NCBI RefSeq assembly: GCF_006345805.1
Contig: NC_043002.1
Span: forward strand, 15,190,001 to 15,254,000
Source of the DNA: Octopus sinensis
Lineage: Eukaryota
DNA: 64,000 nucleotides
Direction of reading: 5' to 3'
Made by a program: the position numbers and the translations under genes. The notes beneath the pieces are model-generated. The model saw only the letters and a program-made list of their open reading frames with translations. It was not told where the DNA came from and searched no databases. Positions 11,668 to 55,932 of the stretch are shown here, one piece after another (the first letter of the stretch is position 1; the number at the start of each line of letters is the position of its first letter).

Positions 11668-11938
11668 TAGGGAGAATTCACAAAAATAAAAAGAAAAGAC
11701 GATGACAACAAACAGATGTATTACTATAATGTCCGGCAACTGAAAAAGTTTTTAACGTTTCGAGCCTACTCTCTTCCACTGAATAGAACACATAAAAGAA
11801 ACAAGGTGAGAAAATACAGAATGTGTAGTGGCTAGCAATCTATCATGTCGAATGCCGGACAGATGGGTCACACAGGACAGCTAAAGAAAATGGGAGATAA
11901 TAAAGTAGTGGTGATCCCAAAATCAAGGTGCGCGTGCC
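11668..11938 (-). mobile_element. ~270 bp dispersed repeat (family H1) with a hammerhead-like motif, probably Penelope pLTR-derived
   Basis: Homologous to 43061-43317 and 55660-55932 (GGGATCAC.ACTACTTT..ATCTCC..CCTGTGTG.CC..TCTGTCCGGCATTCG). Reverse complement of 11748-11785 reads CAGTGGA-A-GAGAGTAGGCTC-GAAA-CGT-TA. Confidence 0.7.
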
Positions 11939-12119
11939 TCTCTCTCTCTATATATATATATACAAATATATATACATATATATATATATGTGTATAATCA
12001 ATAAGTATGCGCTTGTGTGTGCTCATGTGTGGTATGCATGTATTCCTGCATAGTTGCACCGATTTATATAAATATTTATATGACAGGAATATAACACATA
12101 AACTCTATAGCATACTGGT

Positions 12120-12330
12120 TTTCAAATTGTGGCAAAAGATCAGCAATTCCGGTGGAGGGACTGGTGAATTAAATCGACCTCAGTATTGAATTGGTATTTA
12201 GTATATAGACTTCGGTAGCATAAAATTCATAAAATGATCATTGCATAATTTCATCTTTTTGGTTTAAAACGGAAAGAATGCCGCTAAGGATTTTCGCCCT
12301 CTGCTAACAATTTTCTACCAACTCAGCGCC
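12120..12330 (-). mobile_element. SINE family B, heavily degraded
   Basis: TTAAATCGACCTCAGTA..TTGGTATTTA and GCCGCTAAG..TTTCGCCC..GCTAAC....CTACCAACTC.GCGCC resemble the reverse complement of family B. Confidence 0.45.
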
Positions 12331-13859
12331 ATTAGAAAACATTTTCATAGAACCTAAAACTTTTGTAGTCTTTCGTATTTGCATGTGTATATCTATATTC
12401 CAATATATTTCATTTTTGCGTGTGGTAATATTTGAGTATGCTGCATTTACAAAGATTATAGCAAACCTGAAAATATATCACTGTGTTACTAATGGGTACA
12501 TGTAACAATTCAATGCAATTTACTTTAAATTCTCTACAATTTACAATTGAATTTTTCCGACATTACGTAACATTTTAAGTAAGATTCAATTATCAATGTG
12601 TACTATGTTAATTTGTGTGTATAAAATTTTCCTATTTCTTATCGCTGCCATTTTCCCCATTGTAAAGCCACATGCACTTTAGTCACACACTTACAAGAAC
12701 GAAAACAAAAATAACACTCTGGGAGTAGAATAGAAATGTAAGATAATGGTTTCTTCAATCAATTAATCGTGAACTTTAGGCAGTCAAACAATTATAATTC
12801 CGAATGAAATGTTTTAAAATATATTTCACTAAGTGTATTTTCTGCTATTGCATTTAATGAACACTTCAATTTATTGAAAGCTGTCCAGAGGAAAAATCTA
12901 TTAAGGATCTTAGAATAAAGTGATTATTTAATAATCATCTTCAATTCACTTGTAAATGTTATACTTAAATCTTTGTAAGTGTGTTGTTGGTAATATCATC
13001 TTAGATCATACTGCTAAAGGCTGTGTAATCCTGATTCAAAGCAGAAAGCCTTGTGTATACATATATACATAAATACATAAATACTTACATACATACATAT
13101 ACATGTATATATATATATATATATATATATATAATATATATATATATATATAATATATATATATATATATATATATATGTGTGTGTGTGCGTGTGTGTGT
13201 GTGTGTTAATATATAATATATATATATATATATATTATATATATATATATATATATATATATATAAATATTTAAGAGATACAGGAAGAATGGAATATCTG
13301 ACTTGCTAGAAAGAGGAGTTAAAACTCTAAGCCACCAATTGTTGTAATACTGAAAGTGATTGAAAAGTTAAAACTTTTACCTTAATTCGGGTATCTCTTG
13401 TGTTTGAACGTACACTGTATTCTTCTCTGAATAATGTATAGTCTATTGACTAATTTTTCTTTGTCACTAGAGAAATAAGAATTCTTCGATGAATATTCTT
13501 GCTACCCTAAGATTTTAATTATATATACATATATATATGTGTGTGTGTGTGTTAATATATAATATATGTATATATATATATATATATATATATATTATAT
13601 ATATATATATATATATCTATATATATATATATATATATAATTCCTTGTTTAGTCTCATGCATATATTTCTATAAGCAAACTCGCGTACGAATATACGTAC
13701 AAACATTCATGCATACCAGAATATATAAAACACGCACACACACACACACACACACACACACACACACACACATATTCATACATTATATGTATGTGTGTGT
13801 ATGCATGCGTATGCATATGATTATATATAATTATCTAGGTATGTATATATATTTTTTCT

Positions 13860-14327
13860 TCGTTTTACCTGCTTCACTCACTTGACTGCGTCCATACTGG
13901 AGCAGCCCCTTTAGTCGAAAAGATCGAGCTCAGAACTTCCTCTTTGTTAGCATAGTACTTAATCTATCGACTCTATTTCAGAAAACTATATTTTTTGCGA
14001 TGCAAATACACCAATATCGTTTGTCGAGTGATGGTGACCATCAAACACATACACACAGATACATATACACATACACACAAACACACACACACACACACAC
14101 ATACACACACATAAACAAACACACACACACACACACACACACACATATATATATATATATATATATATATATATATAAGGGTCTCCTCTCAGTTTCCGTC
14201 TACCAGATCCACCCACAAGGCTTTCGTCGACCTGACCTTTAGTAGAAGACACTTGCCCAAAATATCCTGAAGTGGGACCGAACCCGGAACCATATGGTTG
14301 GTTAGCAAGCTTCTTGCCACATAGCCC
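13860..14327 (-). mobile_element. SINE family A
   Basis: CAGTTTCCGTCTACCA..AGAAGACACTTGCCCAA..GTGGGACCGAACCCGGAACCATATGGTTGG head, microsatellite middle, ACTGGAGCA tail. Confidence 0.8.
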
Positions 14328-14329
14328 CT

Positions 14330-53031: not shown

Positions 53032-53412
53032 CTAGCAGTATCGCCCGGCGTTGCTCGGGTTGTAAGGGAAATAACTATATAAGCATTTTTAGAGATTTAT
53101 AGCCAAAAAATAGCAAAAGAATGCAATAAAAATGGAAAAAAAAAATTATTGGTAATTTTTTTTAAATCGTTGACTCATCGTATACATTTTAGAGAGTTAC
53201 TTCCCTTACATATAGCGAAAAATGCATTAAAATGGGAAAAAAATTATGTAAATTATTTTTTTAAATCGTAGACGCGCGCTATACCCAGAAGGGTTCGATA
53301 TGATCACGACGTTAAGATACCCGTTTTGGTTTTAAACTGCACCGCAAAATGTGGGAGTAGTTAGGAATCTAAACGTAGGAGACAGACACTCACACAACTC
53401 ACTTTTATATAT
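53032..53412 (-). mobile_element. Non-autonomous Helitron-like element inserted in (TA)n
   Basis: Reverse-complement 3' end is hairpin CCCGAGCAACGCCGGG, then CGATACTG-CTAG-T. The 5' end TATATATAAAAGTG merges with the TA tract. Internal direct repeat TTTTAGAGA..TATAGC.AAAAA. Confidence 0.75.
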
Positions 53413-53509
53413 AATATATATATATAAATATATATATATATATAAATATAATATATATATATATATATATATATATATATATATATATATATATATATAT
53501 ATATATATA

Positions 53510-53627
53510 TTATGTGAAATAGGATTCAATCGGTTTTTGGTAATTGTGCCCTTCGAAACACGTGTAGAATGAAATAAAAACGATTCTGTTCAATCTGCGT
53601 TCAGCTCCATTTCTTCAATCACCAATA
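53510..53627 (+). mobile_element. Family H2 single-arm fragment
   Basis: AATTGTGCCCTTC-GAAA-CACGTG-TA-GAAT..GTTCAGCTCCATTTCTTCAATCAC is homologous to 44085-44165. Confidence 0.65.
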
Positions 53628-55389
53628 ATGTTTTATATATATATATATATATATATATTATATATATATATATATAATATATATATATATATATATATAT
53701 ATAGATATATATATATATATAGTTATATATATATATATATATATATATATATATGCACACACACACACCTATACAGGCCTAAACACATCATGGGACACAT
53801 TGGTCGAAACTTTACTGCATGAGAATATCCTCTATACCGTACAGTATTTGCCTACCTTTGTATTCATCTCAAAATTACATAAGAATTAGGGTACATTTGC
53901 TATACTCCATCTCCGCCATTATGTGATCAATAGTGATCCGATTTACAATTGGATCATTTCCCTCATACTGACGACCTTTACGATATATATAATAATCTAA
54001 ATCTTCCTAAGATTATTCAAGAAAGACTGCATTTTGTCTTTACCTGTAAATAGCTGGGTTTTCGACTTAAAATTTACCTCTGTTCCTCTGAGAGATCATT
54101 TCATTAAATACCACCTTATTTGAATTAAATACTGGAAGTTTAGATTTAATACCTACATAAACTCTGCATGGATTAGAATTAATCGACAGCAATCAATAAA
54201 TTCTTTATTTGTCTTATGCTATTTTCAGTTCAACATACAATGAAATCATCAAAATACACACAGCACTTATAACAGGTCTCTAACGTTTTACATTTACCGA
54301 ATTTAATTGCTTTTTCAAGTAAGCAACATTTTCATGTTGTTCCAAAATTATTGCTGAATTGTTATTAAACTCTCAATGGGTTACTTTCGTCGAAATAGCA
54401 AAATTCCTTCTTAGTATAATGGAAATGATCTAACGCTTTCAATCTCTATTTCAGAATTCTCTTTACACGTTTGCAATAATATATCAGTTTTGCTTATCTA
54501 CTCACTCTACATATGCTGCTACAGTTTATTATCAATGTCTCCGCAATTCACTCGCATAATGATTTGCGTCGAGACGCTATTTTAATCTCCCGTGTGATAG
54601 CGCTGGCAAAACATACAAGAAAAACGAAACAAGGAAAATACGTGAATATTTTCCAAATGCACTACATTGAAATGTTATTATAAATGGTGTTATCGGTGAA
54701 ATGATGGAAAATATGAATTGTTCTCTCGATTAAACAGCGATGTTACTTCATACTTAGAGACAAAGTAAAACAGATATTAGACGTTAAATGCACAAACAGC
54801 AATACTGTAATTATAGAGACTAGCAGCTCTCCTCATATTATCTTACATCTAGAGGCGTATACGTCTAGTACACGCGCACTTATACAAATCACTGCATTTA
54901 TTCAGAATCGCTGTGTCCTTTGTTCAAATCTACCATTCTGTATACGTGGCTGAATATAACGTCTCACTTGTTATAACTCTTCTGCTTGAAAGCTCGATTT
55001 GCACTTACAGCGTCATCTTTGCTGCTAGCATTCCGCTTTAAGTCTTATGCATGTTGTCTTTACTTTTCAGTTCAAGCATCTGATTTCTGATAAAGGATTA
55101 ATATTCGAATGATAACCGTGTATTTTAGTGTTGCTGAGATCTTAAAACGTATTGCTTTCCAAAGCCTATTAGCATATTGTTGGCTGCTAACTCCACAAAA
55201 TATTATTTAGTAAATTTTAGAAATAGAAAACAAATTACTGTTTGTACACCAGTAATTATACCTATGTTCATATATATAAACATACACACACAAATATATA
55301 TATATATATACACACACGCAATTACCCCCCATATATATATATATATATATATATATATATATATAGAGAGAGAGAGAGAGGAGAGAGAT

Positions 55390-55932
55390 GGGGAAATTCA
55401 CAAAAAGAAAACAAAAGACAAAGGCAGGTGGTTTAGACAACAAACAGATGTATTAATATAACGCTCGGGAAGTGAAAAACTCTTTAACGTATCAAACCTA
55501 CGCTCTTCCACAGAAAGGAACACAGAAAGGATCAAAACCAGAAAATACAGAATGTGAAGTGGTATATATACACCACCACTCACGTACCTACACATGTACA
55601 TGCACACGTCAATGTCACCTGCCCCTTCCACAGGCACATACACACCCTCACATACACATGAACGTGCACCTCGTTTTCGGACCACCACTTTAGAATCTCC
55701 TCTTCTTCCGAGCTCTCCTGTGTGACCCCTCTGTCCGGCATTCGTCATGATAGATCTCTAGTCACTATACCTTTTTCTATTTTCTTTCCCTGTTTATTTC
55801 TGTGTTCCTTTCTGTCGAAGAGCGTAGGCTCGAATCGTAAAAGACTTTCTCACTTCCCAAGTGTTAAACTAATACATCTGTTTATTGTATACACATACGT
55901 CTTCGTCTTATGTTTTTATGTAAATTCTCACT
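55390..55932. mobile_element. Two family H1 copies in inverted orientation (55390-55563 minus, 55660-55932 plus)
   Basis: + motif at 55807-55845: CCTTT-CTGTCGA-A-GAGCGTAGGCTC-GAAT-CGTA-AAAGAC. - motif at 55482-55518 (reverse complement): CCTTT-CTGTGGA-A-GAGCGTAGGTTT-GATA-CGTTA-AAG. Confidence 0.75.

Follow-up and report, generated by a model that had tools for sequence, protein, structure and literature searches.

The window, a 64,000-nt stretch of Octopus sinensis DNA (assembly GCF_006345805.1, contig NC_043002.1, positions 15,190,001 to 15,254,000), contains five copies of a repeat bearing a hammerhead-like motif. These copies are the 5′-truncated ends of a protein-coding Penelope-like retrotransposon of about 4.5 kb, with a reverse transcriptase (RT) and a GIY-YIG endonuclease (EN). 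The core of the motif reads CUGUNGA, with U at position 6 (U6) in the place of the A of the canonical CUGANGA (A6). On balance, the element is probably a Neptune-type Penelope-like element (PLE) whose repeat carries a fixed A6U hammerhead, still selected but slow, a reading drawn from sequence comparison.

U6 is the prevailing state of the family

Exact 27-nt patterns were searched genome-wide, each with a reversed-sequence control. A total of 13,789 copies were found, 13,313 with U6, 143 with A6 and 333 with C6 or G6. According to the initial annotation, it was a master element already bearing the variant core that had spread, and the proportion of U6 (96.5%) bears this out. The reversed patterns gave 0 matches each, and therefore the abundance of the motif is far above chance. 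The 143 A6 copies were scattered over all of the subfamilies and appear to be sporadic mutations within the family. Young copies, in which a count of U versus A had been recommended, were of the same kind: among the 48 motifs that the 30 best long young copies contain, U6 was seen in 47, C6 in one and A6 in none. Among the 30 loci nearest to the copy at 55660, used as seed, 28 had U6 and two had C6.

Additionally, copies were detected by their flanks alone in the window and in a motif-blind sample of 80 stretches (792 kb, 10 of the stretches lying beside the window). All 16 of the copies that spanned the core had U6, and three more were truncated past it. The number of family copies in the 792 kb was 15 by nhmmer and 14 in a blast re-run, a density that is a lower bound; extrapolated from the latter figure, the genome would hold roughly 50,000 family copies at the least. 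Contigs of four public runs, with four organism codes, showed no difference of at least 5% at position 6 and differed at N7 and H17 in all four, these data being assembled contigs, possibly of close relatives and not established as RNA, which give no ends, strand or level.

An A6 ancestor within the family was considered and rejected, since the oldest subfamily is already U6: position 6 was U in 81, C in 15, A in 4 and G in 0 of the first 100 of 1,167 copies (by eye). C6, at 15 of the 100 listed in this subfamily (L301-L330), accounts for about 2% family-wide, and the excess reflects either age or a C6 (A6C-like) sub-lineage.

The repeat belongs to a Penelope-like retrotransposon

In the 30 loci nearest to the seed, the upstream flanks were common to some copies for more than 1.5 kb, and the longer upstream stretches translated into RT and GIY-YIG sequence. 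The reading frame matched the profiles RVT_1 (E = 6.7e-8) and GIY-YIG (E = 0.0013, under the curated Pfam cut-off). A 3.7-kb query retrieved 30 long copies with 94-100% identity, and in 16 of the 30 the motif was present at both ends, 4.3-4.9 kb apart, as part of pseudo-long terminal repeats (pseudo-LTRs); in L474 the upstream partial repeat copy measured about 780 nt. In the copy L102, an open stretch of 1,009 codons encodes DKG, YIDD, a C-x4-C-x2-C linker and IIYCISCSLCNSLYIG; a fully intact open reading frame (ORF) was absent from all 30 long copies. The search for protein homologues yielded 588, the best 120 of them at 39-62% identity. The ORF starts about 750 nt downstream of the hammerhead, and the family copies end in TA microsatellites.

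Neptune and Nematis elements are defined by a CX2-5CxxC linker before the EN and by two cysteines between GIY and YIG (PMC8557442). Both features are found in P0121, which contains CSRPRCRTC and IIYCISCSLCNSLYIG (IIY..YIG), and the element is therefore an EN-containing (EN+) PLE of the Neptune/Nematis type by these definitions. The narrower label Neptune is used provisionally, on the basis of the linker and of TA targeting.

The initial annotation had suggested that the repeat may be a non-coding, retrozyme-like mobile RNA. This idea was not sustained, as the copies run upstream into the RT and GIY-YIG frame, which follows the repeat in four or more of the subfamilies where copies are long, and two same-strand motifs within 3 kb were found at 1 of 119 loci. 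Animal retrozymes form tandem arrays (PMC7229834). Reads across a circle junction had been suggested as a check; a pseudo-LTR tandem reads the same as such a junction, and therefore these reads would not discriminate. By contrast, the assignment of the motif to the Penelope-type minimal hammerheads stood, and its structural parts are all present, namely stem I, stem II, the bulge 9a, GAAA, a stem III that is palindromic and the UH site.

A truncated copy fused on its 5′ side to a fragment of the element's own 5′ untranslated region was observed in L182 and L183, a junction that suggests template switching or insertion into another copy.

The five copies of the window

The window has 35% GC, is rich in microsatellites and belongs to a genome of 2.7 Gb. 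The family copies found in it, with the motif of the last one, are the following:

11655..11937, minus strand: 5′-truncated 3′ end (pseudo-LTR), N7=G subfamily; C3 at 11781, U6 at 11778, H17 at 11754
38458..38643, plus strand: 5′-truncated 3′ end, oldest U6 subfamily; C3 at 38523, U6 at 38526, H17 at 38550; lesion G8C
42983..43331, plus strand: 5′-truncated 3′ end, N7=G subfamily; C3 at 43191, U6 at 43194, H17 at 43218
55390..55562, minus strand: 5′-truncated 3′ end, N7=G subfamily; C3 at 55513, U6 at 55510, H17 at 55486
55586..55932, plus strand: 5′-truncated 3′ end, N7=C subfamily; C3 at 55812, U6 at 55815, H17 at 55839; lesion GAAU
55808..55843, plus strand: minimal type-I hammerhead-like motif of copy 55586..55932

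Each copy lies on the strand that had been given for it and has U at position 6; read in the order of the list, the N7 bases are G, U, G, G and C, as described initially. The copies align at 74-85% identity to a long copy; copy 11655..11937 has 81% identity to L091 over 294 nt, and copy 55586..55932, which terminates in a TA/CA microsatellite, has 84.5% identity to L091 over 368 nt. Further mutations in every copy had also been reported, and such lesions were recovered in the core or the stems: U4A with one stem II mismatch in 11655..11937, and elsewhere G8C, a G10.1-A mismatch, GAUA and GAAU, copy 42983..43331 being damaged in both stem II and stem III. Therefore, none of the five is an intact ribozyme.

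The order of parts in the motif 55808..55843 is stem I, CUGUNGA, a bulged A, a 4-bp stem II with its tetraloop, GAAA, the ACGU palindrome, UH and stem I. In the majority sequence of the family, the parts that had been claimed were all found: CUUU/AAAG as stem I, the extra A after A9, GAGC/GCUC as stem II, the GUAG loop, GAAA, the ACGU palindrome and UH. The palindromic stem III was right in its ACGU, common to all of the subfamilies and followed by H17 as A or U, and too wide in its AACGUU, which is the form with H17=U only. The copies 55390(-) and 55586(+) stand head-to-head across a short TA run. They belong to different subfamilies, and therefore the pair likely records two separate insertions at one TA run.

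U6 as a derived state

U6 is derived, because a sister family and a second family of this genome and nearly all of the motifs found beside related RTs of other animals keep A6. The sister family has homologous flanks, an EN about 55% identical and CUGAAGA in 30 of 30 clustered copies. The second family comprises 11,042 exact copies, with A6 in 100 of 100 among the matches listed; an RT/EN at 58-69% sits 2.7 kb upstream of one of its copies, to which the family is plausibly linked. Moreover, 80 metagenome contigs with related RTs were scanned with a descriptor free at position 6. Sixteen motifs were found in 15 of these loci, 15 of them with A6, one a doubtful G6 and none with U6, and no motif was found at the threshold used in the other 65 of the 80.

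The second family, also of Neptune type (L441-L470, L391:3659(-), L472), has a U4C core, CCGACGA, and a 3-nt loop 2. C4 was present in 68 of 100 listed copies by eye and in 18 of 30 by script, and some of its subfamilies are also without one stem I pair. U4C lowers activity in vitro (PMC3088659), so that a weakening of the core would have occurred twice in this genome. Older degraded families with the same architecture (L274, L284, L288, L290, L300) have the canonical CUGANGA and a GGAC/GUCC stem II, the A6 of these families having been demanded by the search pattern itself. The U3-A8 core variant was observed in metagenome PLEs, in both repeats of L229 (1675 and 5099) and in L244:2659.

Covariation of the stems was assessed in an alignment of 12 natural rows, hand-picked and including A6 relatives. 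Stems I and II were paired in 94.8% of the 96 cells, six of the eight pairs had two-sided changes across families, and such changes occurred in 18 of the 96 cells against 0 of 500 shuffles. The covariation looked for is thus present between families and absent inside the U6 lineage, where the stems are identical.

The motif is more conserved than its flanks

When 247 copies were clustered without the ribozyme columns, five U6 subfamilies were obtained, two small clusters of short copies (14 rows) being left out. The flanks of these subfamilies are 66-92% identical. Among the subfamily majorities, none of the 29 constrained ribozyme columns was variable, whereas of the 150 ungapped columns in the flanks 67 were (Fisher test, p = 3e-7, with the columns taken as independent), and the better conservation of the core, presupposed in the initial annotation, was thus seen across the five subfamilies. 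The sole changes among the 36 nt were at N7 (U, C, A, G) and H17 (A, U), two variable sites versus at least 11 in any 36-column window of the flanks. All four states occur at N7 and in 0 of the 150 flank columns, and H17 is never G in any subfamily majority. Since only N7 and H17, the free positions, change, the motif appears to be still under selection in the U6 lineage. Inserted copies decay neutrally, with 20% mismatch at the CpG positions of the ribozyme.

Copy ends and the state of the template

The 3′ end of the copies is constant, about 95-105 nt past the predicted cut site. The 5′ ends were counted in 88 core-anchored copies (L031-L090, L131-L160), a set that takes in no rows of the oldest subfamily: 29 lay within -5..+4 of TCGCCATG, 65-80 nt upstream of the core, 6 between -200 and -6, and 13 further upstream. 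Most of the junctions displayed in this set adjoin TA or CA repeats. The initial annotation had described a discrete unit of about 270 bp, a description that failed, as in all 30 copies inspected the 5′ end falls somewhere between 6 and over 1,500 nt upstream of the core with the 3′ end constant; the window copies measure about 170-360 bp. The notion of a short discrete unit was retained in part: about one third of the sampled copies look like a unit of about 200 nt with a common 5′ start, resembling a short interspersed nuclear element.

Ends at the cut site were sought among 5,359 young copies. Register was lost upstream in 503, and in the first 100 of these, checked by eye, there were about 60 true truncations and about 8 starts at positions 27-29, the cut site. 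The counts were similar at other TA-like sites (about 5 at position 13 and about 12 at 40-45). Starts at the cut site amount to about 1-2% of the 5,359 copies (by eye), and a script count placed 2 of 25 truncated loci there. The site shows neither a clear peak nor a hard stop. The few ends at the cut site, together with the pile-up upstream of the core, make the reverse-transcribed template look uncut at the ribozyme. The transcript 5′ end is inferred to lie near TCGCCATG, a candidate transcription start within the pseudo-LTR; the promoter of Penelope is located in the pseudo-LTR (PMC2377424).

A model for the element and its alternatives

In the model that we favor, transcription would begin in the upstream pseudo-LTR near TCGCCATG, and the GIY-YIG of the element would nick a TA microsatellite. 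The RT would then prime internally, about 100 nt past the ribozyme, and copy back through it, either running off the 5′ end of the RNA to give the copies of about 200 nt or continuing on tandem read-through RNA to give the long copies with pseudo-LTRs. Residual cleavage would occur late in the cycle, as a dimer via the ACGU palindrome and probably assisted by protein. Such copying would need RNA that the ribozyme has left uncut, and selection would therefore tolerate or favor a weaker core. In the Anolis Poseidon element, internal priming by the RT takes place about 85-92 nt beyond the cut site, the RNA used for insertion is unprocessed, and the hammerhead ribozyme (HHR) needs protein to cleave (PMC11167929). 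The A6C change reduces cleavage without abolishing it and is known as a natural slow variant that prefers Mn2+ (PMC3088659, PMC7151607). From the slowness of A6C and the weakness of mutants in the CUGA region, the U6 core is predicted to be slow or dead. A broader proposal is that CUGUNGA is a working natural core, switched on by dimerization and the element's own protein or Mn2+, and that PLEs are selected to weaken their ribozyme because their template is uncut RNA, two of the largest related families in this genome having independently fixed A6U and U4C with all other constraints on the ribozyme kept; we put this forward tentatively, as possible rather than probable.

Several points weigh against a selected, slow ribozyme. 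All of the single mutants in the CUGA region of a type III hammerhead had low activity (PMC9901934). The 5′ ends are not enriched at the cut site over what TA microhomology would give (2 of 25 truncated copies), and the 5′ pile-up could be a stall of the RT instead of a transcript start. Most of the subfamily loci were fetched with ribozyme-anchored patterns, which inflates the conservation, and the Fisher test assumes independent columns; the pattern-free samples agree but are small, the flank-detected one consisting of 16 copies. Moreover, the loop 2 bases and the bulged A are also invariant, beyond what catalysis should constrain, and the stems covary only against A6 relatives, with no covariation after the A6U change. 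Much of this would suit a motif in which A6U abolished catalysis and that was kept as an RNA for protein binding or RT positioning, or as part of the pseudo-LTR promoter, N7 and H17 varying because they are unpaired. A protein-binding role would explain the invariant loop 2 and bulged A equally well, and the lack of both covariation inside the U6 lineage and a genomic trace of cleavage is in keeping with it. HHR mutants leave PLE insertion in vitro unimpaired (PMC11167929), and Naiads spread without canonical HHRs (PMC8557442). In CUGUUGA copies, the predicted fold pairs U4-G5-U6-U7 with the AACG strand, which would mask the core (P = 0.97 in L062 versus 0.00 in the A6 copy L040; mean predicted P of 0.63 over 37 such copies). 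However, in longer context the prediction gives no such fold for the subfamilies with N7 = C, A or G (mean P 0.07, 0.01 and 0.00), nor is it predicted for the U4C family; a universal masking caused by U6 was rejected, as the fold is confined to CUGUUGA. The only changes among subfamilies sit exactly on N7 and H17, with H17 never G in a majority, and all of the other catalytic residues are kept in spite of the divergence of the flanks. Because the only tolerated changes fit the N7 and UH rules, the slow ribozyme is preferred and the dead but bound motif is regarded as a lesser, though serious, possibility.

The opposite reading, that the U6 ribozyme is fully active in vivo as an equivalent core, with the dimer context, a cofactor such as protein or Mn2+, or the bulged A making up for the change, is unlikely. 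A6C hammerheads cleave well in Mn2+ (PMC7151607) and the family was highly successful after the change, with young copies 94-98% identical to the query, but copies rarely start at the cut site and often start about 100 nt upstream, which efficient cleavage forbids unless there is religation, and the second family fixed another weakening change. It is very improbable that the motif is a neutral relic of a master lineage that lost ribozyme function, its conservation being a sampling artefact. The ribozyme-anchored retrieval and the neutral decay of individual copies speak for such a relic; the loci obtained by flanks or with the DNA query yield the same ribozyme, and within the motif the contigs of the four runs vary only at N7 and H17. 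We give the least credence to a non-coding, retrozyme-like RNA moving via small circles. About a third of the sampled copies have common ends, and a derivation of animal retrozymes from PLE pseudo-LTRs has been reported (bioRxiv 10.64898/2026.07.22.740005), but these ends lie away from the cut site, where a monomer defined by the ribozyme would have them, the RT/EN follows in long copies, and same-strand neighbors are as rare as indicated above.

Significance of the A6U core

Minimal hammerheads of PLEs are already known, with the consensus CUGANGAH (PMC4209133). A natural A6U hammerhead was not found in the literature searched, with Lunse et al. 2017 and one supplement of PMC4209133 outside that search. 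The CUGU core was absent from the accessible contents of the other of the two supplements of PMC4209133, and a term search of the available text of an octopus repeat annotation (PMC13282606) returned no mention of hammerheads. An Rfam scan of the window (E<=10) gave no hammerhead family in the best 150 of 208 rows, in which there were microsatellite-driven microRNA matches only. A descriptor search restricted to CUGANGA overlooks such motifs by the tens of thousands.

The role of the hammerhead in PLEs is an open question (PMC8557442, PMC11167929). The octopus family offers a natural experiment, in which a near-invariant catalytic position was changed once and kept through at least five expansions while the rest of the motif was frozen. 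Natural A6 and U6 copies in one background, the U4C family as an independent replicate and near-intact coding copies are at hand. The A6U change would have produced one of two things, a novel functional core or a binding element derived from a ribozyme.

Other repeats in the window

Three head-to-tail copies of a unit of about 1.5 kb, with about 98% identity, were observed at 24368-28936. Each unit contains part of a dispersed repeat of about 430 bp that is also present at 3769-4220, 13844-14329, 19119-19559 and 42409-42851. Long inverted repeats, probably similar to miniature inverted-repeat transposable elements, occur at 2181-2320 (a near-perfect hairpin), 51469-51772 and 51808-52681. A repeat of about 180 bp is in tandem at 56773-57362 and dispersed at 36007-36242, 58015-58227, 47621-47766 and 62492-62662.

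Comparison with known systems

The octopus element resembles the Neptune/Nematis EN+ PLEs (Craig et al. 2021, PMC8557442) in its single ORF, with the RT followed by GIY-YIG, in the CX2-5CxxC linker, in the partial-tandem pseudo-LTRs with a hammerhead and in the insertion into TA microsatellites, and it differs from them in the core, CUGUNGA instead of CUGANGA. With the minimal hammerheads of metazoan PLEs (Cervera and de la Pena 2014, PMC4209133) it shares the type I fold, the short stem I, the base between 9 and 10.1, G10.1-C11.1, the palindromic 15.2-16.2, the U-rich 5′ and AU-rich 3′ flanks and the occurrence mostly as solitary truncated copies; the consensus described there is CUGANGAH, unlike here, and the core variant reported is U3-A8.

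The phage Bcep176 hammerhead is alike in having a pyrimidine for A6, and this A6C ribozyme is slow in Mg2+ (PMC3088659, PMC7151607). Unlike that single phage sequence with C, the present case is a retroelement of an animal, with U fixed in over 13,000 exact copies and across five subfamilies. The Poseidon element PAc of Anolis (Frangieh et al. 2024, PMC11167929) is similar in the start of the RT about 85-105 nt past the HHR cut site, in its AT-rich targets and in the lack of RNA or copy ends at the cut site. PAc belongs to the Poseidon clade and its HHR overlaps the start of the ORF, whereas the ORF starts far downstream in the octopus element; moreover, the slowness of the core appears to be encoded in the sequence here, unlike in PAc.

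Finally, metazoan non-LTR retrozymes have in common with this family the type I hammerhead, the low GC, the short copies and the link to PLE pseudo-LTRs (PMC7229834, bioRxiv 10.64898/2026.07.22.740005). Retrozymes are non-coding tandem arrays with monomers of 150-450 bp bounded by the cut site, whereas the octopus family encodes its own RT/EN and is dispersed.

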